This document shows, one piece after another, positions 16,293 through 46,802 of a stretch of 64,000 nucleotides of DNA. The notes under the pieces were generated by a model. It saw nothing but the letters and a program-made list of their open reading frames with translations, made no database searches and was not told the origin of the DNA. How positions within the stretch are numbered: position 1 is the stretch's first letter; every line of letters begins with the position of its first letter. Origin of the DNA: a bacterium. Its GTDB lineage: Bacteria > Lernaellota > Lernaellaia > Lernaellales > Lernaellaceae. The stretch is taken from assembly GCA_036725605.1 (NCBI GenBank), contig DAIMDW010000021.1:28044-92043 (forward strand). The letters are read 5' to 3'. Position numbers and translations under genes: made by a program.

Positions 16293-16293
16293 G

Positions 16294-25866: not shown

Positions 25867-26061
25867 ATGAACATGACGGAGTTTTACCAGACGCGCATGG
25901 GGCGCACGTTCTATGACCACACCCTGCCGACCATCGCAAAGGAACTGGGTCGGCTCAACGGGCTGCTGGAACGAATCGCCACGGCAATGGAAAAGCAGAA
26001 CCCCGGCCAGAGCGAAGGCCAGGACCAGAGCAACCAGGAGGTCAACGATGGCAAAGCCTAG
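25867..26061 (+). CDS. Small coiled-coil hypothetical protein
   Basis: EFYQT.MGRTFYDHTLPTIA.EL.RLN; homolog 49516-49686. Confidence 0.75.
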   Translation: MNMTEFYQTRMGRTFYDHTLPTIAKELGRLNGLLERIATAMEKQNPGQSEGQDQSNQEVNDGKA

Positions 26062-26263
26062 ATTGCGACGCGGAATGATCATGCGGTACGTGGGCGACGA
26101 CCACGCTTTCATGAAGGGACTCAAAGTCAAACTGATCGCCCCGATTCGCGGGGGCTGGTGGGATGTCGCACCCTGGATCGAAAAGGACGAACGCTTTTCC
26201 TGGGTCACCAGCGACGCCCGCCGCAAGGATCTGGTCCCGCTGGACGAGGAGGGAAAATCATGA
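26048..26263 (+). CDS. Small hypothetical protein
   Basis: GLKVKLIAPI...WWDVAPWIE..RFSWVTSDARR; homolog 49308-49535. Confidence 0.75.
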   Translation: MAKPRLRRGMIMRYVGDDHAFMKGLKVKLIAPIRGGWWDVAPWIEKDERFSWVTSDARRKDLVPLDEEGKS

Positions 26264-26553
26264 AACTCGAAATCGCCATCGACGTGCTCCAGTCCATGAT
26301 CGAACGCGCCCAGGGGAATCTGATCGCCATTCCGGAAGAGGAAGAGGTTGAAGCCCTGCAACGCGCAATCGACTGCCTGACCACCGCCGTCATCAAGCGG
26401 GAGGCTGAAATCAACCGGGCCGTCCACATGATCCGCGAGATCAGCGGGTGGCCTGACAAGGACGTTTCGGAAGTATGGATTTTCCTTCGTGACAAGATTC
26501 GGTTCAGCGAGGACGAGAAACTGGAAATCGAGAGCCGCCTGGGAATCAGGTAG
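26260..26553 (+). CDS. Helical hypothetical protein, distant paralog of the next gene
   Basis: EAL..AI.....A...RE.EI..AV..I....W....D.I.F..D.K.EI..RLG shared with 26563. Confidence 0.7.
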   Translation: MKLEIAIDVLQSMIERAQGNLIAIPEEEEVEALQRAIDCLTTAVIKREAEINRAVHMIREISGWPDKDVSEVWIFLRDKIRFSEDEKLEIESRLGIR

Positions 26554-26562
26554 GGGGTGACC

Positions 26563-26844
26563 ATGAATTTCAAGCAAGCGATCAAGGTGCTTCGCGCCCG
26601 CAAGCGACGCACAACCGGCAACGAGGCCGAGGCCCTGGCCATCGCCATCGAGCAGATGACCAAGGCCGACCGCAACCGGGAGGCCGAGATCGCCAAGGCG
26701 GTGGAGCTTATCCACGACGCGGTGTTCGACTCTGAGGGCAATCTTCACGAAAGCGCCTGGAGCTACATCAAGGATCGGATCGACTTCCCGCCCGACGACA
26801 AGGCCGAAATCATCCGGCGGCTCGGTCTGGACGAAAAGGAGTAG
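26563..26844 (+). CDS. Helical hypothetical protein
   Basis: Homolog of 49009-49305 (HESAWSY.KDRIDFP..DKAEIIRRLGL). Confidence 0.8.
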   Translation: MNFKQAIKVLRARKRRTTGNEAEALAIAIEQMTKADRNREAEIAKAVELIHDAVFDSEGNLHESAWSYIKDRIDFPPDDKAEIIRRLGLDEKE

Positions 26845-26847
26845 CCG

Positions 26848-27732
26848 GTGAATCTGCAAACCGCCATCGACCAATTCCTCACCCGGCTCGAAGCCGAGGG
26901 TAAAAGCTCGCACACCATCAGCTGCTATCAGCGGGACCTGCGATCGCTTGCGGCATTCGCGGGCGACATCGCCGTCGCCGAACTCACCGAGGACCTGCTG
27001 GCCCGGTTTCTTCTGTCCGACTCCGTAACGAAAACGCACACGGGCGCCCGTCGCGGCCAAGCCAGCATCGGGCGCATAAAGGCCTGCCTGAAATCGTTTG
27101 GGCGCTTTGTGGCCAACGTGGGCGCGACGGGGCGCGACCCCGCCGCATGGATCAAAGTGAAACGCCACCAGCGCGAGACGCCCAGCTATCTGACGCCCCA
27201 GGAGGTCAAGGTCCTGGTGAAAGCCGTGGCGTCCCGCAAGGGCGCGGCAGCCGAACGCGATCTGGTCATGCTGAAGATTCTGCTCGGCACCGGCATCCGG
27301 CTTGCGGAATTGGTCGGGCTGGACATCGCCGATATCAGGCTCGACGACAAGAAGCTGAGGCTTCGCCACACCAAGGGCGGGCATGCCCAGGAACGATTCA
27401 TCGCCACCGACCTGCGCCGCGCCCTGCGAAAATACATCCGCGAACGCAAGAAGGTCGCCGCCGACTCCGAAGCCCTGTTCCTTTCCAACCGCAACACCCG
27501 CATCAGCACCCGCCAGGTGCAGGCCCGCATGAAGCTCTGGCTCGCCTGGGCCGGGCTCGACGGAAAGATCACCGTCCACGGTTTGCGCCACACCTTCGCC
27601 ACGACCCTTTATGGCCGCACCCGCAACCTGCTGCTGGTATCCAAAGCCCTCGGCCACGCCCAGGTCGCCACCACGCAAATCTACGCCCACATCGCCGACG
27701 ACGAACTCGAACAGGCACTCGAAGCCCTTTAG
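26848..27732 (+). CDS. Tyrosine recombinase (XerC/D-like integrase), unit A
   Basis: Catalytic R (GIRLAEL), K (TKGG), HGLRH, LGH, Y (TQIYAH). Confidence 0.93.
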   Translation: MNLQTAIDQFLTRLEAEGKSSHTISCYQRDLRSLAAFAGDIAVAELTEDLLARFLLSDSVTKTHTGARRGQASIGRIKACLKSFGRFVANVGATGRDPAAWIKVKRHQRETPSYLTPQEVKVLVKAVASRKGAAAERDLVMLKILLGTGIRLAELVGLDIADIRLDDKKLRLRHTKGGHAQERFIATDLRRALRKYIRERKKVAADSEALFLSNRNTRISTRQVQARMKLWLAWAGLDGKITVHGLRHTFATTLYGRTRNLLLVSKALGHAQVATTQIYAHIADDELEQALEAL

Positions 27733-27862
27733 AACGACCAGCAGCGCCGCGATTCTTTTATGCGCATAAGGCGTCTTATGAGACGTTCCGTGGAAAATCG
27801 AGACGCGCAACGTCGCGGAACTTCGAGACCCGCCGACCGGACCGCCAACGACTTCTGCGAAC

Positions 27863-28498
27863 TTATTTTTGCGTTTTGCCGTCATCCGTCTCTTTTTCCT
27901 TGGCATCTTTCACGCGGGCCAGCAGAGCCACCGCCCATTCAGCGGGCGTGGTGGTCGGCCCGGAACCGCTGTCGCGCTGGGCGCGGGTGGTTTTCAGGCA
28001 CTCCAGCTGCTTGCGAAAGAGCACGTCGTAATTGCCGACTGCGGCATCGGCATTGCCGAGAACCGCGCAGTGCCACTTGGCGTAATAAAAAGCCGCCATC
28101 GATGCCTGGGCGAGGTCGGTTGATTCGTTGAGATCGAAGTCCCGGTGGATCGCGGCGAGCAGTTCCTCGAAGATCGCCTTCTCCTCGTCGGTCAGCATCT
28201 TTTTCACGTAAGCGCCGTGCTTGAGACCGTTGAGGTTGCCGCGCATCTTTTCCGGCGGCGCACCACCGTGGTTTTTCGGATTGGCACCATGGAAGCGGCA
28301 GACCTTGTAGCCTTCCACGACCGGGCTCTTGCACCGCTGGCCGGTGCTTTTCGATTTCGCCTTGCAGCGAAGGACGCGCCGTCCCAGCACAACAACGAAA
28401 TCATCGTCGTCGCCAACCGGAAGTGAGGCGGCGTTTTGTTCGGCGACATTACCGGGGTTGGATTTCGCTTTTTCGTCGGTTAATTCAGCCATTTTCAC
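27863..28498 (-). CDS. HGGxSTG-domain protein (TerS-like), copy 2
   Basis: RCKAKSKSTGQRCK.P...G..VCRFHG, GNLNGLKHGAY. Confidence 0.78.
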   Translation of the reverse strand: MKMAELTDEKAKSNPGNVAEQNAASLPVGDDDDFVVVLGRRVLRCKAKSKSTGQRCKSPVVEGYKVCRFHGANPKNHGGAPPEKMRGNLNGLKHGAYVKKMLTDEEKAIFEELLAAIHRDFDLNESTDLAQASMAAFYYAKWHCAVLGNADAAVGNYDVLFRKQLECLKTTRAQRDSGSGPTTTPAEWAVALLARVKDAKEKETDDGKTQK

Positions 28499-29725: not shown

Positions 29726-30492
29726 CAGAACAGCCGGGCCTGTTGCGGCGGCTGCGTGGGTTTGGGTTGAGGGGGTTGGGTTTCGGGTTTCGGTGGTGAC
29801 GTGGGAGCCGGACTTGGGGTGTAAAAATCCTCCGGAATATCCCGCTGCGGTCCCACGTATGTGATTTCGCTCCCGGGAAATGCGTGCATCACCATCGAAA
29901 GTTTGCGCAGGTCCTCGGCGGAAATTTCGATGCGATCCTGGCCAGCCCTGTCGGTGTAATCGGGAACGAGCGTGAAATCCCCGGGCTTGGATTTGACGTG
30001 GACCTCGACGCCCAGGGCCTTGAACGACTCGACGTCCTTGGGCGTGAGTTCGCGGGAGACGAGGGTCGCGGCGCAGTCTTCAGCGGATTCATGGTCGAAC
30101 CCGCCGTCAAATTCCATGATCGCCGCGCGTTCGTCCCAAGACTCGACGATACCGATGGCATGGTCATGGGTGGGCGCGACATATAATTTCTCGTCCAGGG
30201 TGTCCAGCGCCGTGAGCAGAGCCTTGTCGCCGAGGTGCTCCAGTGCCCAGGTGTTTATCGCGTTGAACCGCTGGCGCAGAGTTTTCCAGGTTTGGGCTGC
30301 CAGCTTACCGGCTTCGTGCGCTTTTTTGGCTCGCTCCATCCGGCGACGAAGCCAGGCGTAGTACGGGGCATCGAGGCGGCGATAAACGGTATTGCCGATC
30401 ATCACGTCCTGGGGATGGTCGGGGGCATTTTCCAGTGTGATGTGCCTCAGGTCCGTGGCGACGCGCAGGGCGACCTTGTTTTTTTCACTCAT
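29725..30492 (-). CDS. Hypothetical protein
   Basis: Coupled to neighbours; contains WDERAAIMEFDGG, a motif often seen next to primases in such elements. Confidence 0.65.
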   Translation of the reverse strand: MSEKNKVALRVATDLRHITLENAPDHPQDVMIGNTVYRRLDAPYYAWLRRRMERAKKAHEAGKLAAQTWKTLRQRFNAINTWALEHLGDKALLTALDTLDEKLYVAPTHDHAIGIVESWDERAAIMEFDGGFDHESAEDCAATLVSRELTPKDVESFKALGVEVHVKSKPGDFTLVPDYTDRAGQDRIEISAEDLRKLSMVMHAFPGSEITYVGPQRDIPEDFYTPSPAPTSPPKPETQPPQPKPTQPPQQARLF

Positions 30493-33400
30493 GGTCTTCC
30501 TCCTGGGGATCGAAGTCGGCCAAATCGCCGGAAAGCGTTTTGCGGTGGGTTGGGTGGGTTGCGGTGTGTTCTCCAGCAGATTCTTCCTGCGCGCCCGCGT
30601 ACGCGGACCGGGAATTATTCACCGCACTCACCGCATTCACCGTGGAGCATTGATTTTGTTGAGGATTTTCCTGCGGTGAGTCTGCGGTGGGTTGATTTGA
30701 CTCACCGCGCGGTTTTTCGGCCTTTTTGGAAAAGAGATCGACTATTTCACCGGGTGTTCTGCCTTCGCCGTCGCTGACATTGACGAGGCCGTAGGTCTGG
30801 TTTTTGGTTCTGGGATTTCGCTGGATCGATATCCGGTAAATATCAAACTGCCGATCGCGCATGGCGCTGAGGGCTCGTCCGAGCCGAATCTTCTGGGACT
30901 GGGGGCCCTTGTCGCCGATGGTTGCGGAGAGCAGTCCCCGCTCAGTGGCAAGACCCAGGAGTTCGGCAGCGGCCACATATCGCGGCCCGAACCGATCCCA
31001 CCATTCGGCGGTGAACTCCCGCCATTCGTTGCCCTCGTGGTCGGCGGCTTCATATAGTTCTTCGAGATCACCGAGAAAACCGGGGATATCAGCGAACTTC
31101 AGGATGCCGCCGATGGTGCGTGCCCAGGAATCGAAGGACCCGAACGATACTTTTTCCGTCTTTTGGCCCGCGACAACCCAGCCGCGAATGATGGTAAGAA
31201 GCGCGGTGATCAGTGCGGATCTGTTGCGCTCTACCCAGTCATCAAGGGGAGAGTGTTTAAACCCCGAGAGCAACCACGGCCGATCATGATGGGAGTCGAT
31301 TCGGATGCGAACGCAGCGCCGGGCGATCTCCAGGGTAAGCGTGGGATTGTTGGCGGTGGCAAGCCAGAGCGCATTGTTGGGTAAGGTGACGATATGGCTG
31401 GAACCCAGGATGCGGTCGCTCCACTCGGTGTCCGTAAGCACGCTGGCCAAGAATGCCGACCTGATGCCCCCGGAAATATTGTCGAGGAGGATGATTTGGG
31501 GTGCGCGGCTCAGTATCGATGTGAATTTCTTGGCGTTTTCTCCCTCGTCCCTGACGAGCGGCAAACTGGCGGCTTCCTTTTTGGCGAGGGCGATTTTCGA
31601 TATCGCTTTTGCAAGCAGCGACTTTCCGGTGCCCGGTGATGGTGATTCGATCAGGTGCAAGGGCGTCGGCCCCTGGATCATGCGGCGCACAAAGGGATGC
31701 AACAGCGCGGCGATGGCATGGGCGCGATCCGATGGGGCCGTGAACGGAAAATCGACGAGCAGGTCGTTGATCAGCAGGGAGCGTGCCTCGGCCACCTGGG
31801 AATCGGTGGGGTGCTCGGGAACATTCACCGGTTCGAAGCCGCGTGGACGATGAAGCCAGAGTCGAGCATCACGGTGATATCCCGGCGCTTGGACGAGGCT
31901 GCCGTTTCGATCAAAAGTGGGGGTGGTTGCAACGCTTTCCAACGGAGGAAGCGAGTGATGCGGCCGCTTCACCATAACCATCGGAAGTTCCTTGGGCGGA
32001 TTGGCGGGCAACTCCATGTCGGGAGTTCGCCGAACCCAAGAGGCGATGCTGCATAAGTGATCGAACATGATGGTGGCGTCCACGGGAATGATTTCCGGGG
32101 TGTCTTTGAAAAAGGTCAGGCACACCGGGGAGCCGGTTCTCATGAACAGCTTCGGCGGATAATTGGAGGACTGAACCGCCGCCCAAGCCTCATCGCGGAT
32201 GTAGCGAAAATGGCGGTTGTTCACGATGATGGTGGGAAGGCGGGGGCCATCACCACCATTACTTTTCGGGCCATCACCCATTACTTTTTGGGCCTTCGGA
32301 CCATTACTTTTTGGCTGAATGTAATGGTCGGGCATTACTTTCGGGGTTGCTGAACCATTACTTTCCGCCTCGATGTAATGGTCTCCATTACTTTTGGCAT
32401 TACTTTCGGTTTCGGATGTAATGGTCGCGGTGGGTTCCGCCATTACTTTTTGCGGTAAAATGTAATGGTCTTGCTCGTTGCGGAGGATCTGTTCGTCTTT
32501 CGCCATACGGTGGAGCAGGACGCGAGTCGAGTTTTGATCGCGTCCCAGGCGCTCGGCGACGTCTTTGGGAGCAAGAGGCTCCTCGGCCTCAATAAGGCAT
32601 TCCAGAATCTCCCGGCGCTTTTTCGATTTGACCCCGTCGACCAATTCCGCCGGATCGATGTCCATGAACTCGGCGATCTCCTCGTCCGTGGGCAACGGCG
32701 GGTGATCATGTCTCGGCGGCTCCCATCCGGCCTTTTTCGCCATATCGAACAGGGTGCCGAGGGTGACGCCGCCGCCGGACGAGAAGCTCCCCCACTTGTC
32801 CTCGGGTTCACAGGCCACGTATTTGTCGCCGCGAGCGCTCCACGAATCCCAGATGGAAAGTCCGGCCTGCGGTTCCCATTCGTGGAGAGCCATGCCGATC
32901 CGGACCCAGTCGTCGTAGGAACAGTCGGGGGATATGGAGTCCAGGGCAGAGATGACGAGATCGGAGTCGGTTGCCGGATAATCGGAGGGGCCAGATGATG
33001 GGCTGCGGGGCCCGGTACTTTTCTCCTGCCTCTTGGGCCTCTTCTTTAAAACCACATTGCACAAATCATCCGGCACCTGGTCAACGATGGCGGCGAGATC
33101 GGCAACTGAAAACCGTTCGAATTCCTGGGGATCGCTGGGCGCGGGTTCGCCATCGTCGCCGACCACGTAAAACCTGTTGCCGCCGTCCTTCGCATCGAAC
33201 CAGAACGGCAACCAGACTAGGTTGCCCGCCGAGTGCTTGGTGCTGCTCACCTTGTTCTGTTTCGGGAAGCATTCGATGCCCCTGTTGGTGCGTACATCTG
33301 CGATCTCGCCGGTAACCAGGGGTTGATCGACCGGTGCAATGAAATGGCCGAGCAGTCTGGCATCAACAGCCGGAACCGGCTCTTCGAAAAACACCCAGAG

Positions 33401-33871
33401 ATGCCATCCGGCGCCGCTGCCCGATTTTTCGATGTGGACGGGGATGCCGAGTTCGCAACACCGTTGGTAGCACACCATCATCGTTGCCAGCGGATCAGCC
33501 AGCGTCGTGCCCTTGGAGTGATCGGCGCCCGGGCCGTCGAAATCGAGACAAAGCCAGGAGGCGGTATCATCGGGGGCGACCGAATAGCTTCCCAGACGAT
33601 CAAAACCCCGCCCATCGGCAACTTGGCCGGATGTTCTGCGATTGATGTAATTGAGCGGCGGGGCCTTGCCGCCGGACGGTCCGACCACATGGAAAGCGAT
33701 GAGATCGCCAAGGGCCTTCTCTTCCCGAACAGGACGCGGCCGGGATTTCGTTTCTCCGGATTTGCGATCCACCCACGATTGGCAGGCCGCGACGATGTCG
33801 ATCCGGGCAAAAAAGTATTCGCGCAACAGGCGACAGGCTTTTTCTTGCTCCGAGGTCAACCGCCTACCCAT
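30485..33871 (-). CDS. Replication protein: AEP (TOTE-type) primase + PriCT-2 + wHTH + NTPase/helicase, unit A
   Basis: WLCLDFDG, HIEKSGSG.GWHLWVFF, SYDDWVRIGMALH...WD.WS..G.KY, SPSPGTGKS, ILLDNI; start at GGAGG-preceded ATG 33871. Confidence 0.85.
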   Translation of the reverse strand: MGRRLTSEQEKACRLLREYFFARIDIVAACQSWVDRKSGETKSRPRPVREEKALGDLIAFHVVGPSGGKAPPLNYINRRTSGQVADGRGFDRLGSYSVAPDDTASWLCLDFDGPGADHSKGTTLADPLATMMVCYQRCCELGIPVHIEKSGSGAGWHLWVFFEEPVPAVDARLLGHFIAPVDQPLVTGEIADVRTNRGIECFPKQNKVSSTKHSAGNLVWLPFWFDAKDGGNRFYVVGDDGEPAPSDPQEFERFSVADLAAIVDQVPDDLCNVVLKKRPKRQEKSTGPRSPSSGPSDYPATDSDLVISALDSISPDCSYDDWVRIGMALHEWEPQAGLSIWDSWSARGDKYVACEPEDKWGSFSSGGGVTLGTLFDMAKKAGWEPPRHDHPPLPTDEEIAEFMDIDPAELVDGVKSKKRREILECLIEAEEPLAPKDVAERLGRDQNSTRVLLHRMAKDEQILRNEQDHYILPQKVMAEPTATITSETESNAKSNGDHYIEAESNGSATPKVMPDHYIQPKSNGPKAQKVMGDGPKSNGGDGPRLPTIIVNNRHFRYIRDEAWAAVQSSNYPPKLFMRTGSPVCLTFFKDTPEIIPVDATIMFDHLCSIASWVRRTPDMELPANPPKELPMVMVKRPHHSLPPLESVATTPTFDRNGSLVQAPGYHRDARLWLHRPRGFEPVNVPEHPTDSQVAEARSLLINDLLVDFPFTAPSDRAHAIAALLHPFVRRMIQGPTPLHLIESPSPGTGKSLLAKAISKIALAKKEAASLPLVRDEGENAKKFTSILSRAPQIILLDNISGGIRSAFLASVLTDTEWSDRILGSSHIVTLPNNALWLATANNPTLTLEIARRCVRIRIDSHHDRPWLLSGFKHSPLDDWVERNRSALITALLTIIRGWVVAGQKTEKVSFGSFDSWARTIGGILKFADIPGFLGDLEELYEAADHEGNEWREFTAEWWDRFGPRYVAAAELLGLATERGLLSATIGDKGPQSQKIRLGRALSAMRDRQFDIYRISIQRNPRTKNQTYGLVNVSDGEGRTPGEIVDLFSKKAEKPRGESNQPTADSPQENPQQNQCSTVNAVSAVNNSRSAYAGAQEESAGEHTATHPTHRKTLSGDLADFDPQEEDHE
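30542..30708. repeat. CACCGC/GCGGTG iteron-like repeats in the 3' end of primase A
   Basis: About 8 direct and inverted copies within 170 bp. Confidence 0.5.
32257..32470. repeat. Intragenic iteron cluster: 8x CATTACTTT and 4x TGTAATGGTC
   Basis: Counted directly; encodes the KSNG/KVM/DHYI repeats between the wHTH and helicase parts of primase A. Confidence 0.8.
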
Positions 33872-36095
33872 GGATCGCCTCCTGGGTAAGCCCGTCCTTT
33901 CGCCAAAGACCAAGGAAGGTGCTGCGATTGTCGTTGGCCTGTTTCTGGGCGCAGTTTCGGATGCCCCAACGATCGCCGATGATGATCGTCGTTTCCTGGG
34001 CGCGGGATACGCCGGTGTAAAAGAGGTTCTGGCTGTGCATGAACGAATGGCTCTTGTGGATCACCACGACCGCACAGGGAAATTCGCTGCCCTGGGTCTG
34101 GTGGATCGTGAGGGCATAGGCCAGCTGCAGGTCGCTGAGATTGCCGTCGGATCGTTTGAGAAGGACCTCGGCGTTTTCGAATCGGACGCGCAGGTCGCCA
34201 TTGGCGAAAACCTGGGTCACGCGCCCGATGGAGCCGTTCATAATGCCGAGGTCATAGTTGTTGCGGCGCTGGATGACCTTGTCGTGAAGCAGGAACCGGG
34301 GGCGGCGATTGGCTTTTACGGGCTCGACATCGACGCCGTACAGCTTTTTCTGAATGAGCCGCTGGAGTTCGAGATTCAATTCCTCGACGCCGAGCGGATC
34401 CTTTCGCTTGGGCGTGAGCAACTGGACGTCCTCGATGAGATCGAAACCCAACTTGTCGGCCAGGATGGAATCATAGAGATCGCAAACGAGCCGCCGCACA
34501 TCCCAGGCGTCAGTAAAATTGTCGATCCGGTACCAGGGGCGACGACCGCTGGGCAACACCGATTCCGAAGTCTTGGCGACCTTACCGGACAGCACATCAA
34601 TGGAGTTTTGCCGAAGCTCACCGGCCTGCCGAACGATATCAGTGAGCACCACGCCGGGCACGATGCCGGTATGGATCAGGTCGCGCAGCAGATCACCGGG
34701 GCCAACCGGCGGCAGCTGGTTATGGTCGCCGACGAAGACTACGGCGGTTTTGTCGTGATCAATGGAGCGCAGCAGACGCCACGCCAGCGGGATATCCACC
34801 ATTGATGATTCGTCGATGACAATAATGTCGCAGTCGATGGGATCATCCGGACCTTTGCCCCACTCATGACCGTTGTATTCCAGTAACCGATGGATGGTGG
34901 ATGCGCGTATGCCGACCACCTCCTCAAGTCTGCGGGCGGCTTTGCCGGTGGGCGCACAGAGAACCACCCGGAAACCGAGGGATTCATAGAGCCGAGCCAA
35001 TTCACCGACTGTGAAAGTCTTGCCGCTTCCACCACCGCCGGAAATCGTGACAATCTGGTTGGTGAGCGCAACGACAACCGCTTCGCGCTGTTTGGGATTG
35101 AGGTCGGGACAGAGTTTACCATCACGCACCTGTTGCCAGATGCCGAGCAGGTCCATCACCAGGGGGTGGTCACGGTCGCCGTTGCGAAGCCAACCCTCGA
35201 CCTCCCGCTCCATCATGTGGATGGACTTTCGAGCCACAAGCCAACGCCCGTCATGGGAATCGCACGCGAGCTTGCCCGCTTTGATCAAACCATCCAATTC
35301 GTGTTCGATAATGTCACGGGAGTTCAGGGCGTCCATTATTAGGAGCCTGTTGGCCTGTTCGATGAGGTCTGATTCCTCGATCCAGGTGTGCCCTTTGTCG
35401 AGGGCGGTATCGACGCAATCGATTATTCCGGCACGAACACGCGGTGGAAAGTCCTTGGCGATGCCGATCTTCCGGGCAATGGCATCAACTCGCTTGAAGC
35501 CGAAGCCGCGTACGTCCCGCACGATGAGATACGGGTTGTTCTTGATGATAGATACCGCGTCGTTCTCATATTTTTCGATGAGCGTTCGGATCTGATGATG
35601 AGTAAGACCAAAGGCGGAAAGCTCCGATGCGGCCACGTTGCTGGCCTGGCGCTGCATCCATTCGGTCCGAATGTTGCGGGCCGCTTCGATTGTGATGGGA
35701 CCGGCTTTGGCGATCGCCTCGGGGTTTTCCACGATGATCTTGCCGAAATCCCGACCGAACTTTTCCGCAATGCGCCGAGCTTTAACAGGGCCAAGGCCGA
35801 CAAAAACAGGATTGTCCGCAAGATATCGTGCAAGCCCTTCCTCGGATAGATTGAGATCGTGCGTGAGCGTCTCGGTTTTGAACTGTCGCTGATATTTGGA
35901 ATGCATTTCCCAGTCGCCGTGGAGCACAACTTGCTCGCCGACCGCCGCGACAACGGTTCCGGCAAAGTTGATCAGCTTGCCGTTGTCGTCCCGTTTCAGG
36001 CGTCCAGCCGTATAGGTCGGCGATGAAAAAAAGAGGTGCTCCACCCGTCCGGAAATGGATTTTGATTCATGTTCGATGTGGGATGCCGTTTTCAA
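33864..36095 (-). CDS. recD2: RecD2-like SF1B ATP-dependent helicase
   Basis: NPY.....V.GFGFKRVD.IA, Walker A variant GGGGSGKT, IDESSMVD, GDHNQLPPVGPG, LAYALTIHQTQGSEF, LFYTGVSRA. Confidence 0.9.
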   Translation of the reverse strand: MKTASHIEHESKSISGRVEHLFFSSPTYTAGRLKRDDNGKLINFAGTVVAAVGEQVVLHGDWEMHSKYQRQFKTETLTHDLNLSEEGLARYLADNPVFVGLGPVKARRIAEKFGRDFGKIIVENPEAIAKAGPITIEAARNIRTEWMQRQASNVAASELSAFGLTHHQIRTLIEKYENDAVSIIKNNPYLIVRDVRGFGFKRVDAIARKIGIAKDFPPRVRAGIIDCVDTALDKGHTWIEESDLIEQANRLLIMDALNSRDIIEHELDGLIKAGKLACDSHDGRWLVARKSIHMMEREVEGWLRNGDRDHPLVMDLLGIWQQVRDGKLCPDLNPKQREAVVVALTNQIVTISGGGGSGKTFTVGELARLYESLGFRVVLCAPTGKAARRLEEVVGIRASTIHRLLEYNGHEWGKGPDDPIDCDIIVIDESSMVDIPLAWRLLRSIDHDKTAVVFVGDHNQLPPVGPGDLLRDLIHTGIVPGVVLTDIVRQAGELRQNSIDVLSGKVAKTSESVLPSGRRPWYRIDNFTDAWDVRRLVCDLYDSILADKLGFDLIEDVQLLTPKRKDPLGVEELNLELQRLIQKKLYGVDVEPVKANRRPRFLLHDKVIQRRNNYDLGIMNGSIGRVTQVFANGDLRVRFENAEVLLKRSDGNLSDLQLAYALTIHQTQGSEFPCAVVVIHKSHSFMHSQNLFYTGVSRAQETTIIIGDRWGIRNCAQKQANDNRSTFLGLWRKDGLTQEAIHG

Positions 36096-36102
36096 CTGTC
36101 AT

Positions 36103-36207
36103 GCCTTTCCTTTATGCTTCGATTCGTTCGGTTCCATTCCGTTTTGATCCGATCCACTCATCTTCATTCGTTTTTCAATTCCACCGGCCGAGGCCGACTC
36201 GATTCGA
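36103..36207 (-). repeat. Pentamer array 3 (21 in-phase 5-mers, NN+GRA, more degenerate)
   Basis: ...gtGGA tcGGA tcAAA acGGA atGGA acCGA acGAA tcGAA gcATA aaGGA. Confidence 0.7.
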
Positions 36208-36225
36208 CCACGGACGCTGAAATCG

Positions 36226-36310
36226 ACCTTTTCAATCCTTTCCATTCCGCTTCATTGCCTTCCGGTCTGATTTCCTCCTATCCCCTTCCGTCCGATTTCT
36301 TCCGTTACTG
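36226..36310 (-). repeat. Pentamer array 2 (17 units, 13 ending G-N-A)
   Basis: caGTA acGGA agAAA tcGGA cgGAA ggGGA taGGA ggAAA tcAGA ccGGA agGCA atGAA gcGGA atGGA aaGGA ttGAA aaGGT. Confidence 0.85.
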
Positions 36311-36320
36311 ATCACTGCGG

Positions 36321-36480
36321 TTGAATGGTCAGCGAAACCCCCGATTAAGGAGGCTCCGCTGGGCGTTCAAATAAATTCCAAACCATCCTTTTCTTTTCAC
36401 TCCATTCCGCCCGGCTGCTTTTCTATCCTTTCCACTCCGCCGCTATCCGTTTGCCTTCTCTCCGGTACACTGCTCGTCTC
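36321..36480 (-). ncRNA. Putative guide RNA: pentamer array 1 (22 units, 17 ending G-N-A) plus 3' hairpin
   Basis: gaGCA gtGTA ccGGA gaGAA ggCAA acGGA taGCG gcGGA gtGGA aaGGA taGAA aaGCA gcCGG gcGGA atGGA gtGAA aaGAA aaGGA tgGTT tgGAA ttTAT ttGAA, then a 13-bp stem CAGCGGAGCCTCC-TTAATC-GGGGGTTTCGCTG. Confidence 0.7.
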
Positions 36481-36483
36481 TAG

Positions 36484-37002
36484 TCATTTTTCTTTTTCCG
36501 CCGCCATGTTCAGGAAGGCTTTGATGTTCGGTGCTTTGCCGCTGATGTTGGCGGGGATCAGTTTCTTGGTGTCCACGGTGGCGACGCGGTAGATCGCGCC
36601 GGTGCGAAGACGCTCCATTTCCAGGTGCCTTTTCGCGTCATCGTCCAGCTGGTCGGCGTTGATCTTGACCAGGACGCCCATGGTTTTTTTCGTGTGGCGC
36701 GTGGCCAATTCCCGACGGCCCTGAGCGAAATCCACCGCCTCTGCCTCGGTAAGGCGGCGGAATCCCACTTTGGTCACGGTGTCGATGAAGATTTCCTCGT
36801 TCCACAGATTCTTTTGAGCGGTGTAGAAACAGCCGCGCTTTTTCTCCTGGTAATCAACGCCACGCCGGGCATGTAATTCCTCGTATGTGATGACCTCGCC
36901 CGGCTCCAAAGCGCGAAGATCGTTCATGAGGGCGGTGGTTTCCGGGCTCATACGAAAAGGCGGGAACCGATTGACGACCTGGGCCTGGGATGATGTGTCC
37001 AT
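36484..37002 (-). CDS. Hypothetical protein with probable winged-HTH, between the RAMP gene and the arrays
   Basis: GGAGG SD then ATG 37002; EVITYEELH...G.DY...RG.FY.A.K.L; the longer 36484-37578 call is an upstream extension overlapping the RAMP gene. Confidence 0.7.
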   Translation of the reverse strand: MDTSSQAQVVNRFPPFRMSPETTALMNDLRALEPGEVITYEELHARRGVDYQEKKRGCFYTAQKNLWNEEIFIDTVTKVGFRRLTEAEAVDFAQGRRELATRHTKKTMGVLVKINADQLDDDAKRHLEMERLRTGAIYRVATVDTKKLIPANISGKAPNIKAFLNMAAEKEK

Positions 37003-37012
37003 GACGACCTCC

Positions 37013-37591
37013 TTATTTCTGCTTCCAGACCAGGTCCTCAACAACGAACCGCCCGTAATAACCGTTGTTCTGGGGGCGGAATCTGCCGAGCCCGTTGAAA
37101 AAGCCGGTGGCGACGATGTGCTCCTCGAAAATGTCCTTGGTGATTTCCGGCGCGGCGATGTGAACGGTCGCCTCGGTGCGCCATTCATCGATGGTGGGAA
37201 ATACGCGGGCGACTCGTTTCGCTCCACCCCGTTTGCCGTCGGAGGGCACGTGGATTTTTTCGGGATAGATGCGCGGGTCTTCGATGTGAACGCCGAGGTA
37301 AAGACGCTGATCGATGGCGATGCCCTTGGTGAACTGGGCGGTAAAACCCCGCTGCGATCCCTTGACCTTTTTGCCGAGAAACTTCGCCGTTTCAGAGAGG
37401 GCGTAATGCAGGGCCATCGGCGGGATGAAAACCTGGCCGTCACGGTCGTAGTGCAGCTTTTCCCGCCAGTGCTCGTCCTCCCACTCGTCGTAGGACTGGT
37501 TTTGGCCCTTTTCGATGTTGAGATACCGGCTGTTGCTGTAGGGCGACTGCCCGATAATCGAGAATTTCGCTTCAACAAATTGGATGCTCAT
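37013..37591 (-). CDS. Stand-alone RAMP/Cas7-like protein (candidate RNA-guided effector)
   Basis: RAMP-like motifs IIGQSPY, FIPPMALHYAL, RVARVFP..DEW, and Gly-rich loop GFFNGLGRFRPQNNGYYGRF.V; GGAG SD; no cas genes or CRISPR array nearby. Confidence 0.75.
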   Translation of the reverse strand: MSIQFVEAKFSIIGQSPYSNSRYLNIEKGQNQSYDEWEDEHWREKLHYDRDGQVFIPPMALHYALSETAKFLGKKVKGSQRGFTAQFTKGIAIDQRLYLGVHIEDPRIYPEKIHVPSDGKRGGAKRVARVFPTIDEWRTEATVHIAAPEITKDIFEEHIVATGFFNGLGRFRPQNNGYYGRFVVEDLVWKQK

Positions 37592-37603
37592 GATATGCTC
37601 CTG

Positions 37604-38164
37604 TCAGTGTGAATGTTCTGTTTCGCCGCCCGCGCCATGGGCGGCTTTTGTTTGCCGTTCCTTTGCTTTGCAGCCCGTTTCTGCCGTTTCCGGTTCTGTC
37701 CGATCCTTTCGTCTTCTTTCCGGTCCAATCGTTTTCCGAAGACATTCGGCCGCCGCGATCAAAAAATGTTCGGTGAAAGCCCGGGCGATCTGCCTGTTGG
37801 AACAGGGGATAACCGGAATGCCTTTGTTAACGACGATGCTGATCAGTGCTCCGAAGACGCTTGCGGGGTGAGCGCCGGATCGGTAGCTGCCGGAGAGGAT
37901 GTCGGAGAGATTTCCCTCGACGACCACGCAGGAATGGGCATATTCGGCGAGCTTTGTAAGTTCCAACCCGAACCTGCGACGATCCGAGATGACGGATTTC
38001 ACAAAATCGTCCAGCGACTTTCGTTCGACAGCGATGGAGGTTTCCATCCCCTCGACCGAATAATCCCCGGCGGGCAATGCGCGGCGTTCCGTCATCACCC
38101 CCTGAAACTCGTAGGGGATCTGTTCCCTGGTATCGATGATGATGGTCGGCGTATTCATGTTCAA
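37604..38164 (-). CDS. ERCC4/XPF-domain nuclease
   Basis: IIIDTREQ.P, LPAGDYS, IAVERKSLDDF, F..EL..L; the last about 45 aa are low-complexity read-through of array 0. Confidence 0.88.
   Translation of the reverse strand: MNMNTPTIIIDTREQIPYEFQGVMTERRALPAGDYSVEGMETSIAVERKSLDDFVKSVISDRRRFGLELTKLAEYAHSCVVVEGNLSDILSGSYRSGAHPASVFGALISIVVNKGIPVIPCSNRQIARAFTEHFLIAAAECLRKTIGPERRRKDRTEPETAETGCKAKERQTKAAHGAGGETEHSH
37625..37738 (-). ncRNA. Putative guide RNA: pentamer array 0 (17 units, 12 ending G-N-A) plus 7-bp GC hairpin, overlapping the ERCC4 tail
   Basis: cgGAA aaCGA ttGGA ccGGA aaGAA gaCGA aaGGA tcGGA caGAA ccGGA aaCGG caGAA acGGG ctGCA aaGCA aaGGA acGGC, then GCCGCCC-ATGGCGC-GGGCGGC. Confidence 0.65.
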
Positions 38165-38628
38165 AACGCCGACAACGCGCTTTTGGCGGCGTCCTGATAA
38201 TCGCCGTCCGGATTCTCAAGCACGATGCGTTTGTTGAAATAAATGTTGGAATACTCGCCGCGCGTGCGCTTCGTGACCTCGAGTCCCACGTCCAGAAGTT
38301 CGTTCAGGCGATTCGGAAGATCGGACAGTTTGGCCAGTTCCAGTCCGCAGAGGAGCAAATCGGCCTTCAAATATTTCAGGTTATCCCGGCTGGCCATTAC
38401 GCTGTTGCGAAAGAGCATGCGGCCGCGATGCTGGGGACCGAGCACCCGCAACTGCCACTTGAGCATGGGGGCGCCGTTCTGCGTGTTCCCCATTTCGACC
38501 TTTTCCACCTTGGCTTGATATTTTCCATCGGGAAGGTCGTCGAACTGGTTGGGTTCCACTTCCGCTGCCGCGTAATCATCATCCAGCGCGGCGAGATCGA
38601 AGTTCTGGTTGTCGTATTGGTCTGTCAT
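38161..38628 (-). CDS. DUF669 family (phage SSB-like) protein
   Basis: FDDLPDGKYQA.V, G.PMLKWQLRV, GRMLF; ATG 38628 after GGAGG. Confidence 0.8.
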   Translation of the reverse strand: MTDQYDNQNFDLAALDDDYAAAEVEPNQFDDLPDGKYQAKVEKVEMGNTQNGAPMLKWQLRVLGPQHRGRMLFRNSVMASRDNLKYLKADLLLCGLELAKLSDLPNRLNELLDVGLEVTKRTRGEYSNIYFNKRIVLENPDGDYQDAAKSALSAF

Positions 38629-39402: not shown

Positions 39403-40422
39403 TCAAAAAATGGGCTGGTTGTTTGTGTTGTCATCGTCGATAAGCTCGGAATGCGGCGGCTCGATGCGGTACAGGTTGTCGCGGACCAGGGGCGACATGC
39501 CGCTGCTGCAAAGCGGGTAATACGCGCAGGGGCGATTCCACTTGAAGCAGAAATCGGTGTTCTGATACCAGGAGTCCCGCCTGCGAGCGTCGAGGAAGCT
39601 CTGAGTCAGTTCCCAAAGTTCCGCCTGGAGCATGGCAAAGCGGTCGCGGGAGATATACAGCACCTCCCGATGGAACATCCCCGGTTCGGAATACTTTTCT
39701 GCGAGGCGAGCCTGATAATCATCGTCGCTTTCCGGCAACCGCCGTTTTGCCGATGATTTGCCGGTCTTCGATTTGGCAATGAGTGCGGCGCGGCGAACTT
39801 CGAACTCGGTCTCGGTCTCGCCTTTGGATTGCTGGAGCCTGGCCTTACAGAGGATGTTATAGATCACCCCGGAAATGCGAATGCTCAGGGCTTTTTCGAT
39901 GTACCAGCTGTAAAGGATGATCTGAAAATCGGTCCAGAGCCGTTCCAGGTAACCCGAATCGATGTTCGACGCGGTTTTGTGTTCGAGTAGGAAATACTCA
40001 CCCCCGTCTTTGACGATTCCGTCGACTTTCCCAGCCAAAATGAAACTGCGCGACGCCGCCCCGGTAGCGGGGTTGATAATCTCCCCCTGGAACGTTTTTT
40101 CCAGGGCGATAACATCGAAATCCTCTTCCGGGTAAAGAGCGGCATAAGCCCTCATCATTGCGATCGCCAGATGCCAGTCCCGATTCTGGTCGTCATCGGA
40201 GGCGCGATCCGGATATGCGCGATCGATAAGATCGAGCACCTTGTCGAGATTGCGGGTCCGGTGCCAGCATTCGAGGAACCGGTGGATGGCCGAGCCGAAG
40301 AGAAGATTATGATCTTCCGACAACGTGACGAGATGCTCGATGTATCGCTTCATGCATGCCATGCGGCAATTTCTGAAAAGGCTCCACATGGAATAGGTTG
40401 AAATCATTCGTTCGGCGGTCAT
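39403..40422 (-). CDS. PD-(D/E)XK nuclease (RecB/Cas4-like exonuclease)
   Basis: FRNCR, GSAIH, LAGKVDGI, LLEHKT, Q...Y, CFKWNRPCAYYPLC (four-Cys Fe-S-type arrangement). Confidence 0.82.
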   Translation of the reverse strand: MTAERMISTYSMWSLFRNCRMACMKRYIEHLVTLSEDHNLLFGSAIHRFLECWHRTRNLDKVLDLIDRAYPDRASDDDQNRDWHLAIAMMRAYAALYPEEDFDVIALEKTFQGEIINPATGAASRSFILAGKVDGIVKDGGEYFLLEHKTASNIDSGYLERLWTDFQIILYSWYIEKALSIRISGVIYNILCKARLQQSKGETETEFEVRRAALIAKSKTGKSSAKRRLPESDDDYQARLAEKYSEPGMFHREVLYISRDRFAMLQAELWELTQSFLDARRRDSWYQNTDFCFKWNRPCAYYPLCSSGMSPLVRDNLYRIEPPHSELIDDDNTNNQPIF

Positions 40423-40864
40423 ACGGATTTCTCCTTTTTGAGGTGCAGCATATCGAAAGCGAGGGTCCGAAATTTTGGCCCGACCCTCATGCAAGGGGAC
40501 TTTTCACTTTGTTTCCCATGGGAAGACAGAGACAAAGGCGCTTTGTGTGGCCCCTTGAAATGCCATATGGAATCCCTTGGAAGATCCGGGCAAAAAGCAA
40601 CGAAAAACGGCGCAAAATCGTGGATGAGTTTTCGGTACTTTTTATTAAAAACTCTTCCAGCGGGGAGGCGGGGAAGCTCTCTCGGCGTTTGCAAAGGCCC
40701 TCCTCGTTCAAGTATCCTGGACCTACGGCAGGTAATAAGGTTTGATTCGTTGATCGAACCGGCAGGTGTCCACCACTTCCAACGGGCTCCCGGGAACTAC
40801 AAGGTCATCGTCCGGGGCGTAGAGAATTTGCGGAGGAAGTTTATCAATCCGAAGGCATCGGAAG

Positions 40865-43521: not shown

Positions 43522-43676
43522 GTGACAATTCGTTTTCTTTTGGGGTTGTCGAAAAAATCGAGCCCCGGCGAAGCGGAAGGCAAAGCCTTCACATGGCCCT
43601 ACGAGGTAATCGGAAGAACCGATCCCGCGTTGGACCGAAGGCGAGGTCCTTCCGTTTCGGCGGGGCTTTTCTTTTT
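43522..43676 (+). promoter_or_regulatory. Terminator/antiterminator leader ahead of primase B
   Basis: GGGG-TTG-TCGA-AAAAA-TCGA-G-CCCC hairpin overlaps the 5' arm of a 20-bp stem ending CGGGGCT-TTTCTTTT. Confidence 0.6.
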
Positions 43677-43688
43677 GAGGGGGTCGCA

Positions 43689-46600
43689 GTGCACGAAAAG
43701 GAAAAATGCGTTCAACTTCTGCTTAAGGATTTTCTCACAAGGCGGGACGTTGTCGCGGCGCGGCAGCAGTGGCAGGACCGCCGGAGTAGAGAGTGGATTT
43801 CCAGGCCTCGCCCGGTTAAAGCCGGCCCACAATTGGAGAGTTTGGTCGCCTTCCATGTCTATGGACCGGAGGGACGCAAGGCACCCCCATTAAATTACAT
43901 CAATAACAAAACCGGGGCTCTCGTTGCCGATGGCCGTGGCTTTGACCGCTTGGGTGCTTATGCCGTCACACCGGACAATAAATGCGGGTGGCTTTGTCTT
44001 GATTTTGATGGTCCGGGCCATCCGCTGCCTTTAGCTGACCCGACGGCCACGATGCTTGCGTGCGTGGAACGCTGCCGCGCTTTGGGCGTCCCCAGCCACA
44101 TCGAGATGTCCGGCAGCGGCCATGGTTGGCATCTCTGGGTGTTTTTCGAAAACCCGGTGCCGGCCTCTGATGCGCGGTTGCTCGGGCATCGTGTCGCACC
44201 CACGGATCATCTGCTCGTCACCGGCGAGCCCGCCGATATCCGAACAGGGCGTGGGATCGAATGCTTCCCGAAGCAGAACACGGTCAGCGACAAGAAAATC
44301 GGCGCGGGCAACATGGTCTGGCTGCCGCATTGGTTTGGAGCAATAGGCGGGGGAAATCAATTCCATCGGTTCACGGACGAAAGGATTCTCGCCCCGTATT
44401 TACCTGACGAGTTCGAACGACTACCGGTCGAGCGGCTCCAGGACATCCTCACCCAGGTGCCCGACGATATTAGGCACTTCGTGCTAAAAACGAAGGATGG
44501 ACTAAAGGCCCCGTCGGCTCCGAAAAGTAGTCCACACGCTGCGTCCACCAACTATGCGCCAAGCGACACTCAGATGATCCAGGCGGCACTCGATCACATC
44601 TCGCCCGACGTTTCCTATGACGACTGGCTTCGTATCGGCATGGCACTTCACCACTGGGACGCGCAGGCGGGGCTTTCCCTTTGGGACGCCTGGAGCGCAC
44701 TCGGCGAGAAGTATGTGGATGGCGAGCCTCCGCTCAAGTGGGACGGATTCACATCCGGCGGCGGCGTCACACTCGGCACCCTGTTCGATATGGCAAAAAA
44801 AGCGGGTTGGACCTCACCCGTTCATAAACGGGTTCCGCTGCCAAGTGACGAAGAGATCAACGATTTTATTGACGTTGACCCATCCGCATTGCTCGATGGA
44901 GCGGCTTTTAAACGAACGATCAACGCTGAAACCGCTCTTTCTGGTTCGGACGGGATCACAGTTTCAGATAGAAAGCGATTGCCGGTCATTATCGTCAATA
45001 ATCGAACCGGTCCTGCACTGATCGAGGAAGCTTGGGCGGCGATTCGTGCTTCCAATTATCCACCGCGAATATTCCAACGGAATGGCGCATTGGTCCGACT
45101 CACGATGAATACGGACCCTCCGAAAATCATCCCCATGAATTTCGTCTCCATGTATGGCCTTTTATGGCGGGTTGCCAATTGCGTCGTCGATGCCAACGAC
45201 ATGCAGAAGTCGGTCAACCCGCCCAAAGATCTGGCTAGCGACATGCTGGAGTATCCCGACCCAACGTTACCCCACCTCGATGCCGTCGTCTCCACGCCGG
45301 TCTATGATCGCGAGGGCAATCTTGTTCAAGCGCCCGGGTATCACCGAACCGCTCGGCTCTGGATGCATATCGCGCCCGGAACATTGCCATATGATGTTCC
45401 GACCAAACCATCAGACGCACAGATCGCCGAAGCCGTTGCTCTTCTCAACAACGAACTATTTGTCGATTTTCCGTTCACCTCGCAGTCCGGCCGTGCTCAT
45501 GCCGTGGCCGCTCTGTTGCAGCCTTTCATCCGGCGGATGGTCGATGGGCCGACCCCCATGTATTTGCTGGAGTCGCCGAGCCCGGGCACCGGAAAAACCC
45601 TTCTCGCGAAAGTCATCTCCAGAATTGTGCTCGGCAAGTCTGTCAACGCGGCAAGCCTCGATCTGGATGAGCAAGCTATCGCGAAAAAGATCACGGCCAT
45701 TCTTCTGGGCGCACCGCAGGTCGTCCTAATCGACAACATCAATGTTCGCACTGGTCTCAAGTCGGCCGCTCTGGCCGCCGCAATGACCGCCGAACCTTAT
45801 TCCGAACGCGTTTTATACCAACCCGGCATGACGGAGCTTCCCAACCATGCGTTGTGGCTTATCACGGCCAACAATCCGAGCATGTCCCTGGAGATTGCCC
45901 GCCGCTGTGTCAGCATACGCATCGACGCGCGACACGACCGACCTTGGCGTCTGCATGGATTCAAGCACGAGCCGCTGGATGATTGGGTGGTAGAAAACCG
46001 TGCGGCCTTGATCACGGCCATTCTCACCATCGTGCGTGGCTGGATCGTCGCGGGGCGGCCGTCGGGAAAATTGACCTTCGGTTCCTTTGATTCATGGGCC
46101 CGCATTACCGGTGGCATTCTTCAGTTCTCAGGCATTCCCGGATTTCTTTCCAACCTCGAAGACCTGTACGAAGCAGCGGACACCGAAGGTGGGGAATGGC
46201 GCGAATTCGTCGCCGCGTGGTGGAGCAAATTCGGCGGGCGGGTTGTACCTTTTGCGGAACTGTTGGACCTCGCCAATGAAAAGGGCTTGCTCCCATCCGT
46301 CGTCGGCGATCAGGGATCGCGCGCGCAAAAGACACGGCTCGGCCGCGCCCTCAGCGCCATGAGGAATAGGCAGTTTGATTCCTATCGAATTGTGCAGCGA
46401 AGAAACAGCCATACGAAGCAATCCGAATACACGCTGGAAGAGGTAAACGCCGACGACCAACGCATACCGCATGGAATGGCTCCGGTCCTGCCGCTTTTTG
46501 CGGGTGATCGTCAGCCATCGAGCGCATCATCCGCAATATCGTCCGCGAAAAATAATTCTAAAAATCAGCCAGTTGCGGATGATGCGGAAGATGCGGAAGA

Positions 46601-46802
46601 CATTTCCAATTTGCTGGATAACGAGGGCGATAAAAAAGGGATGGAGGGGGTATATGAGAACAATAGAGGGCTATCATCCGCATCAACCGCAAACGTAGAA
46701 ATTCATCAGCACAATCAGCAAGTTAGCCATGCGGAGGATGATTCGAGATTATCTCCGGCATCATCAGCGGATCTCGCCGACTTCGAACCTGAGGAGGATT
46801 AA
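43689..46802 (+). CDS. Replication protein: AEP (TOTE-type) primase + PriCT-2 + NTPase/helicase, unit B
   Basis: WLCLDFDG, GWHLWVFF, SYDDWLRIGMALH, SPSPGTGKT; collinear with primase A but lacking the wHTH/iteron insert; GTG start after GAGGGG. Confidence 0.85.
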   Translation: MHEKEKCVQLLLKDFLTRRDVVAARQQWQDRRSREWISRPRPVKAGPQLESLVAFHVYGPEGRKAPPLNYINNKTGALVADGRGFDRLGAYAVTPDNKCGWLCLDFDGPGHPLPLADPTATMLACVERCRALGVPSHIEMSGSGHGWHLWVFFENPVPASDARLLGHRVAPTDHLLVTGEPADIRTGRGIECFPKQNTVSDKKIGAGNMVWLPHWFGAIGGGNQFHRFTDERILAPYLPDEFERLPVERLQDILTQVPDDIRHFVLKTKDGLKAPSAPKSSPHAASTNYAPSDTQMIQAALDHISPDVSYDDWLRIGMALHHWDAQAGLSLWDAWSALGEKYVDGEPPLKWDGFTSGGGVTLGTLFDMAKKAGWTSPVHKRVPLPSDEEINDFIDVDPSALLDGAAFKRTINAETALSGSDGITVSDRKRLPVIIVNNRTGPALIEEAWAAIRASNYPPRIFQRNGALVRLTMNTDPPKIIPMNFVSMYGLLWRVANCVVDANDMQKSVNPPKDLASDMLEYPDPTLPHLDAVVSTPVYDREGNLVQAPGYHRTARLWMHIAPGTLPYDVPTKPSDAQIAEAVALLNNELFVDFPFTSQSGRAHAVAALLQPFIRRMVDGPTPMYLLESPSPGTGKTLLAKVISRIVLGKSVNAASLDLDEQAIAKKITAILLGAPQVVLIDNINVRTGLKSAALAAAMTAEPYSERVLYQPGMTELPNHALWLITANNPSMSLEIARRCVSIRIDARHDRPWRLHGFKHEPLDDWVVENRAALITAILTIVRGWIVAGRPSGKLTFGSFDSWARITGGILQFSGIPGFLSNLEDLYEAADTEGGEWREFVAAWWSKFGGRVVPFAELLDLANEKGLLPSVVGDQGSRAQKTRLGRALSAMRNRQFDSYRIVQRRNSHTKQSEYTLEEVNADDQRIPHGMAPVLPLFAGDRQPSSASSAISSAKNNSKNQPVADDAEDAEDISNLLDNEGDKKGMEGVYENNRGLSSASTANVEIHQHNQQVSHAEDDSRLSPASSADLADFEPEED
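46527..46781. repeat. TCCGC/GCGGA iteron-like repeats in the 3' end of primase B
   Basis: About 8 copies, e.g. GCGGATGATGCGGAAGATGCGGAAG. Confidence 0.5.

Follow-up and report, generated by a model that had tools for sequence, protein, structure and literature searches.

Systems termed VIPR (Viral Interference Programmable Repeat) were described only in 2026, in two preprints (bioRxiv 10.64898/2026.04.26.720920 and bioRxiv 10.64898/2026.04.26.720927), and few of their natural targets have been decoded outside two clades. In the published systems, an RNA termed vrRNA consists of 9–16 GGY/NN pentamers bound by the small RAMP protein Vipr, and the Vipr–vrRNA complex pairs only the NN positions with double-stranded DNA, skips one target base (NNx) and represses transcription (bioRxiv 10.64898/2026.04.26.720920). 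The skipped target base usually falls at a codon's wobble position, and resistance to synonymous escape is already raised in the Discussion of that preprint (bioRxiv 10.64898/2026.04.26.720920). According to the two preprints, a typical locus comprises vipr, one vap gene and flanking arrays. Here, we analyzed a 64,000-nucleotide stretch of contig DAIMDW010000021.1 from a bacterium of the Lernaellaceae, referred to as the window, which carries a gene for a 192-aa Cas7-like RAMP protein flanked by four minus-strand arrays with a period of five bases.

This locus is best explained as a VIPR locus carried by an integrated mobile element (hereafter the island, 19996–58348) in its replication and recombination module, with guides acting as proposed below, a reading to which we assign a probability of about 0.72. 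The identification rests on the arrays themselves, the RAMP fold of the protein, the link between its family and period-5 arrays lying beside the gene in relatives, and guide readings that fall in codon register on protein motifs, all of which are established here, together with the vap-like partner gene. The components of the locus are as follows.

37657–37741, minus strand: array 0, upstream vrRNA candidate, 17 units
37625–37645, minus strand: GC-rich hairpin of 7–8 base pairs, immediately 3' of array 0 and ahead of the vipr start codon
37013–37591, minus strand: vipr gene, 192 aa, Cas7-like RAMP protein with a C-terminal glycine-rich loop (GLGRFRPQNNGYYGRF)
36484–37002, minus strand: vap-like accessory gene, 172 aa, directly downstream of vipr
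36379–36478, minus strand: array 1, 20 units, beginning directly after the vap stop codon
36330–36361, minus strand: 13-base-pair hairpin in the spacer after array 1 (86-nucleotide stretch with a minimum free energy of -30.7 kcal/mol, z -2.75)
36229–36313, minus strand: array 2, 17 units
36101–36180, minus strand: array 3, 16 units

The resemblance to the described VIPR systems extends to several features. A small (~20 kDa) Cas7-like RAMP gene is accompanied by a small partner gene and by no CRISPR array; pentamers of three fixed and two variable bases form a single upstream array and three downstream ones, the arrangement described for phage SUSP1; and the location is a mobile element. The readings likewise follow the NNx pattern, with the gap on the codon wobble, on either strand and with no self-target. 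The number of units per array (16–20), their flanking position and their orientation on the gene strand fit the VIPR definition. However, the window triplet is GGA/GAA, with a purine where Y is defined, in contrast to the published YNNGG, NNNGG, YNNNG and NNNNG forms. The window arrays also share no common 3' tail or pseudoknot and carry no hammerhead, and their guides are directed at motifs conserved in gene families that the element itself carries, with exact matches in chromosomal recD2. An invariant structured 3' tail after the repeat tract characterizes type II VIPR in the preprint and is not a VIPR-wide feature; here it is absent, and a shared 'aa aa' end is present instead.

Other known systems are more distant. 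[quoted passage not shown] No CRISPR-like array was detected with TRF or Rfam, and no cas genes were found with Pfam among the neighbours tested; the combination of a repeat–spacer array and a multi-gene cas operon that marks class 1 CRISPR–Cas is absent from the locus. Type IV-D CRISPR offers a parallel in its RecD-family helicase beside a RAMP-based RNA-guided module, and the island helicase matches the PADLOC model typeIV_RecD (E 2e-61), but it scores far better as an ordinary RecD2. Unlike in type IV-D, this helicase belongs to a phage-type replication module and is not conserved beside vipr in relatives. TIGR-Tas systems are phage-associated, non-CRISPR tandem guide arrays that operate with a Nop-domain protein and contiguous split spacers; by that description, neither the Nop-domain protein nor the contiguous split spacers are features of the window locus.

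A Cas7-like protein family with adjoining period-5 arrays

The AlphaFold2 model of the 192-aa protein has a pLDDT of 92, and its best PDB matches in Foldseek are type VII Cas7, Csm3 and Cmr4 (best E 7e-9, TM about 0.55–0.6). A sequence search of a PDB copy without VIPR entries returned no homologue, only weak repeat-driven matches to designed Kelch-like proteins. The protein matches phrog_4652, whose function is not annotated, and has 199 homologues, all of them unnamed and without Pfam domains. Relatives were compared at 31 species-genome loci and seven metagenome loci (L041–L078). In nearly every one of them, period-5 arrays lie directly beside the gene and on its strand, and the vipr-type gene is usually followed by a gene of 162–172 aa. 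Homologues of the vap-like protein adjoin vipr in six relatives (L046, L049, L052, L056, L065 and L078); the window protein itself has no Pfam, NCBIfam or PHROG match, and its single-sequence structure model (pLDDT 41) is unusable.

The fixed triplet of the relatives is lineage-specific, being GGC, GAC, CGC, CAC, CTC, GTC, GTT or GGT. Its first two bases vary freely, and all relatives have a pyrimidine in third place, unlike the window. The window Vipr deviates at 20 positions, including E32Q, R40E, T41H, K62H, N63Y, K85A, H86Q and D147A, from residues that are 80–100% conserved in 34 relatives, and on the basis of this alignment the 20 residues are candidates for the changed triplet preference. 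An identical Vipr protein is on record on 11 metagenome contigs, and nine loci (L001–L009), from at least nine JGI, ENA and Logan samples, were compared. These are essentially identical to the window, arrays included, with isolated single-base differences at most, and such near-identity across samples indicates that the element is widespread and has recently spread. As a source of NN variation among close relatives, the nine loci offer essentially none.

To delineate the arrays, GGA/GAA triplets spaced five bases apart were counted in stretches of 12 units along both strands of the whole window. Only four places score 7–9/12, all on the minus strand (37751–37657, 36478–36349, 36308–36219 and 36175–36096), against a background of at most 5–6/12 on both strands, and nothing similar occurs elsewhere in the window. 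The arrays described in an earlier reading of the letters alone (the original prediction) are accordingly real, and its NN strings for arrays 0, 1 and 2 were reproduced letter for letter by minus-strand parsing. Its account needs amendment in four respects: array 3 was omitted although it lies inside the region covered; the ends of the listed strings are probably constant rather than guide; the fixed triplet is GGA/GAA/CGA and so differs from the published GGY in its third base; and array 0 overlaps the 3' end of a called ERCC4 reading frame.

Each unit consists of a fixed triplet, mostly GGA or GAA and at times CGA or GCA, followed by two variable bases; degenerate triplets (GCG, CGG, GTT, ATA) are numerous within the window arrays. 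Array 0 comprises the units CTT.cg GAA.aa CGA.tt GGA.cc GGA.aa GAA.ga CGA.aa GGA.tc GGA.ca and then GAA.cc GGA.aa CGG.ca GAA.ac GGG.ct GCA.aa GCA.aa GGA.ac. The array is contained in the final ~45 codons of the open reading frame called for an ERCC4-type nuclease; the match to the ERCC4 family profile stops near residue 143, and the frame beyond it runs through array 0 and the hairpin behind it. This tail (37604–37745) is a low-complexity read-through (RKTIGPERRRKDRTEPETAETGCKAKERQTKAAHGAGGETEHSH), and gene callers on other contigs give the same long frame. The guide part of array 1 (36409–36478) reads GA GT CC GA GG AC TA GC GT AA TA AA GC GC. The complete string of array 3 is TG AA AT GA GT TC TC AC AT AC AC TC GC AA AA AT, with the guide part AT GA GT TC TC AC AT AC AC TC GC at 36116–36170. 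As a separate observation, the last units of array 3 (AAAGGAAAGG) occupy the expected ribosome-binding site of the RecD2 gene that follows.

The arrays of the window and of the relatives end in two or more 'aa' units, in relatives often as '..aa GAC.aa GAC.aa GGA'. Because the relatives' arrays end in the same manner and both DNA-level matches described below stop just before these units, the last 2–4 dinucleotides of each string (AA AA and the like) are probably a constant 3' end, and we infer a guide portion of about 11–14 dinucleotides followed by the constant 'aa aa' end. The hairpin 3' of array 0 may be the tail of the corresponding vrRNA; on the plus strand, it fits a terminator pattern as well. 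An Rfam scan revealed no hammerhead or other RNA family in the locus, and no sigma-70-like promoter was found there.

Guide readings and their targets

The 10-NN core of array 3 (GAnGTnTCnTCnACnATnACnACnTCnGC) has 44 exact gapped (NNx) matches in a species-genome collection of about 185,000 species, against a chance expectation of about one. In the same collection, two further 10-NN patterns are without a match, and the array 3 pattern has none in IMG/VR. All but one of the matches (43/44) are full-length RecD2 genes, ~30% identical to the island helicase, and these 43 genes are matched on the coding strand at motif II (ADVVIVDETSM), where the skip coincides with codon wobble. In other words, the guide part of array 3 is the reverse complement of the ADVVIVDETSM codons with the wobble skipped (an antisense reading). 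Most of the RecD2 matches extend to all 11 well-formed units of the array, 22/22 bases, and end at 'aa aa'. The matched recD2 genes stand in ordinary chromosomal housekeeping contexts, in the company of comF-like, flgN and sigma-factor genes, PdxJ, and APS kinase and epimerases.

The significance of the array 3 result rests on a coincidence with the family of the neighbouring gene and on a six-frame scan of the window. The array directly abuts the island's RecD2 gene, and the estimated chance that a random 10-NN pattern matches any RecD2 gene in the collection is ~5e-4 per pattern. In the six-frame scan, the best match of the array 3 reading is motif II of the island RecD2 itself, CDIIVIDESSM (34800–34832), with a score of 39 versus 28.1 +/- 2.3 for shuffles (maximum 36; 0/200 as good). 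At the DNA level, this island site matches 15/22 core bases.

Array 1 yields a second reading of this kind. The original prediction had translated it as E/D-V-P-E/D-G-T-Y-A-V-K/N-Y, and this peptide turns out to be a conserved N-terminal motif of DUF669 proteins, in that the forward reading [DE]VP[DE]GTYAV[KN]Y[KN]AA corresponds to the family motif [DE]VPDG[TK]Y.V. Across 150 DUF669 representatives, the mean fit is 6.36/14, versus 4.41 +/- 0.15 for shuffles (z about 13; 0/100 as good), always at that motif, and the other seven array readings are at chance against the same representatives. The best single representatives fit 9/14 positions. Within the window, the best match of array 1 is the island's own DUF669 protein (DLPDGKYQAKVEKV, 38497–38538), which taken alone is not significant (21/200 shuffles as good); this site matches 17/28 NN bases.

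Two of the four guides are thus in codon register on motifs of two families that the island encodes within 2 kb, with its own copies mismatched. Gap models other than the one-nucleotide skip were compared within the window and the fetched loci. Since only a one-nucleotide gap yields codon register, these readings provide internal, in silico support for the published NNx rule, here in a remote member of the family whose triplet differs. The rule named in the original prediction is that of the VIPR preprint (bioRxiv 10.64898/2026.04.26.720920), it places arrays 1 and 3 in codon register here, and the anticipated skipping of wobble positions is seen in the 43 RecD2 matches. Because the code, the wobble logic and the model of conflict between elements are all contained in the preprints, that part of the prediction correctly restates published work and is not a discovery.

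A 9-NN seed of array 2 gave 13 matches in a single metagenome scan. Two near-identical short contigs among them (L086 and L087) extend to 12 consecutive perfect NN under the one-nucleotide skip, corresponding to units 2–13 of the array (AC AG TC CG GG TA GG TC CC AG AT GC), and 25/28 bases are matched, versus a maximum of 19–20 for shuffles. The site lies in a 134-aa gene (129 aa as catalogued) resembling phage Holliday-junction resolvases (phrog_843), beside a SNF2-type helicase. No relatives of the L087 element turned up in phage records or in collections of viruses and genomes, and only two proteins make up its cluster, both from contigs not exceeding about 2.2 kb. For array 0, no target was found in the window, the fetched loci or IMG/VR.

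Further searches returned background. The gapped search of the island that had been proposed with the original prediction (gaps 0–3, both strands) gave no match above chance, the best self-targets on either window strand reaching 0.55–0.68 of NN bases, a level equal to that of shuffles; in the preprint, too, contigs with VIPR loci are reported to show no self-targeting. Guide matches in the fetched loci (62, later about 90, all relatives included) were at chance level only, as were those of guides against Vipr genes. The guides were also written as degenerate peptides (NNx as codons, both orientations) and searched as profiles against 5.8 billion protein clusters, with nothing at E <= 10; this search would register a match over the full length with at most about 2 mismatches but would miss one of 11 residues such as RecD2, which makes the negative a weak one. 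Targets reported for VIPR in the preprint are satellite genes and prophage regulators, and the original prediction had expected helper phages or rival satellites here. The results do not show this: the exact array 3 matches are chromosomal recD2 genes, the proposed pattern search of IMG/VR produced no significant match for any array, and only array 2 has a phage-like candidate.

Proposed mechanism and competing explanations

By analogy with the preprints, from which filament formation, DNA binding and silencing are taken over, the 192-aa Vipr would polymerize on transcripts of the four minus-strand arrays, each protomer gripping one fixed triplet (GGA/GAA) and leaving the two bases that follow exposed. 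These dinucleotides would pair with NNxNNx... in double-stranded DNA, and binding would block transcription. Array 1 in its sense reading would address the DUF669 motif [DE]VP[DE]GTYAV[KN], array 3 in its antisense reading the RecD2 motif II ADVVIVDETSM, and array 2 may match the Holliday-junction-resolvase-like gene of a phage-like element. Because the skipped base falls on the wobble position in arrays 1 and 3, one such guide would cover every homologue that keeps the protein motif, regardless of synonymous codons. The island's own DUF669 and RecD2 genes, in which 32–39% of the read bases differ, would be spared, since their match lies below the 80% level used in the preprint. As to the element or gene actually targeted in nature, we infer as the likeliest use of the guides a silencing of these replication genes in competitors that carry the same module, or of the host recD2. 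A more specific proposal is held tentatively and with somewhat less than even confidence: a VIPR variant that accepts a purine (GGA/GAA) may use guides on the RecD2 Walker B and DUF669 N-terminal motifs to silence whole gene families, with self-immunity conferred by recoded motifs (CDIIVIDESSM and DLPDGKYQAKV) and possibly with replacement of the host RecD2.

Several results weigh against the overall VIPR reading. The third fixed base is A, versus a pyrimidine in the published motif and in all sampled relatives, and the structural preprint states that the third-base pocket of SUSP1 Vipr sterically excludes purines; therefore, the window Vipr must have another way of binding RNA, unless the system is inactive, as it could be. 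Among the four arrays, the 3' tails are unlike each other, with clear hairpins only after arrays 0 and 1, and the arrays are known here from sequence alone. Exact matches to array 3 fall in housekeeping genes on the chromosomes of 44 diverse species and not in phages; being homologous, they count statistically as one independent event. No perfect DNA target was found for array 1 or array 0. In the array 2 match, the skipped base is codon position 1, not the wobble, and with a chance probability of ~0.01–0.05 the site may be regarded as a candidate target only. Exact gapped seeds from all four arrays, eight patterns in total, gave no matches in IMG/VR in six cases, and the 31 and 1 matches of the other two failed extension; two of these seeds included the ends 'AA AA TG TG' or 'AT GT', later judged not to be guide.

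Among the competing explanations, a takeover of the host fares best, although it is rather unlikely and forms a sub-case of the VIPR reading. Array 3 would then act on the chromosomal recD2 of the host, and the island would supply its own recoded (CDIIVIDESSM), immune RecD2. The housekeeping contexts of all exact array 3 matches and the absence of the same pattern from IMG/VR fit this idea, as does an island RecD2 whose gene follows directly on array 3 and which scores above the RecD2 equivalog cut-off (TIGR01448, 538 bits). The host recD2, however, lies outside the window, and the host may well be without the exact site, which is confined to 44 of about 185,000 species; the absence of self-targeting on VIPR-bearing contigs in the preprint also runs counter to such a role.

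Clearly less probable is that the arrays are real VIPR arrays whose target matches are chance or a historical residue, the GGA system being in decay or its true targets absent from public data. The purine at the third base, the many degenerate triplets (GCG, CGG, GTT, ATA) and the 20 departures of Vipr from otherwise conserved residues would all be at home in a decaying system, and arrays 0 and 1 are without targets, with none significant in IMG/VR. Against this explanation stand two independent guides in codon register on conserved motifs of two families from the same module, with the chance of a RecD2 match estimated at about 1e-3, and a locus that is identical across nine metagenome loci from several samples and whose open reading frames are intact.

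Autoregulation, in which imperfectly paired guides would tune the replication module by acting on DUF669 and RecD2 of the island itself, is quite improbable. The best protein-level matches of arrays 1 and 3 in the window are indeed these genes, but the sites match only 61–68% at the DNA level, no better than the best random window site, and the preprint found that disturbed NN pairing abolishes silencing. That the repeats are not guide RNAs at all but iterons, origin protein-binding sites or low-complexity coding sequence is the least credible explanation, and by a wide measure improbable, for although they lie in a replication module and array 0 sits inside an open reading frame, a period of five is incompatible with coding, the same architecture with a lineage-specific triplet accompanies a RAMP gene in about 35 unrelated genomes with differing neighbours, and the variable dinucleotides carry codon-register information.

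Genomic setting and significance

The VIPR locus sits on an integrated element within a bacterial chromosome, as follows from the ordinary chromosomal DNA to the left of the island (bases 1–19,000, with a cobalamin riboswitch and B12/iron uptake genes) and from a large serine recombinase at 56840–58348. There is no tRNA gene in the window. The genes around the locus are listed below.

39403–40494, minus strand: PD-(D/E)XK nuclease, 363 aa
38645–39406, minus strand: AAA_24 ATPase, 253 aa
38161–38715, minus strand: DUF669 gene, 184 aa as listed, with the motif DLPDGKYQAKVEKV matched by array 1
37604–38164, minus strand: ERCC4-type nuclease gene, 186 aa
33864–36095, minus strand: RecD2-family SF1B helicase, 743 aa, starting directly after array 3, with motif II CDIIVIDESSM
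30485–33913, minus strand: AEP primase, 1142 aa

Within the frame of this AEP primase, three tandem copies of a 22–23-nucleotide repeat (GGGCCATCACACCATTACTTTTC) occupy 32244–32311. The island holds three AEP-type primase genes (30485–33913, 43593–46802 and 52845–55415), the last of which is a strong TOTE-type AEP with a helicase fused to it. Further island genes encode a DNA ligase fused to an IetA-like AAA ATPase (19996–23166) and a 1123-aa open reading frame without a match (24535–27906). In the chromosomal part, the cobalamin riboswitch (8126–8317, plus strand; Rfam RF00174, 113 bits) precedes a 558-aa frame without a Pfam match, and a TonB-dependent receptor (12621–14570) and a FecCD permease (16108–17319) lie further downstream. 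Long CGATGACGA / CGA triplet repeats at 10832–11010 and 17858–17910, with up to 19 copies of a 9-mer, probably encode acidic low-complexity stretches.

The findings that are new here are a repeat with a purine in the third fixed position, the wide range of triplets within the family, and motif-level targets combined with diverged self copies. The variation of the fixed triplet, including a purine at its third position, bears on how Vipr reads its RNA and on the engineering of these systems. Natural guides can target conserved catalytic motifs of replication proteins, and the idea of wobble skipping thereby becomes concrete. A single 33-base-pair site that occurs in 44 sequenced species, versus a mismatched copy in the island, provides a testable case. 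If the proposed reading is true, VIPR guides would exert family-level silencing across hosts and rival elements, with self-immunity arising through motif divergence.

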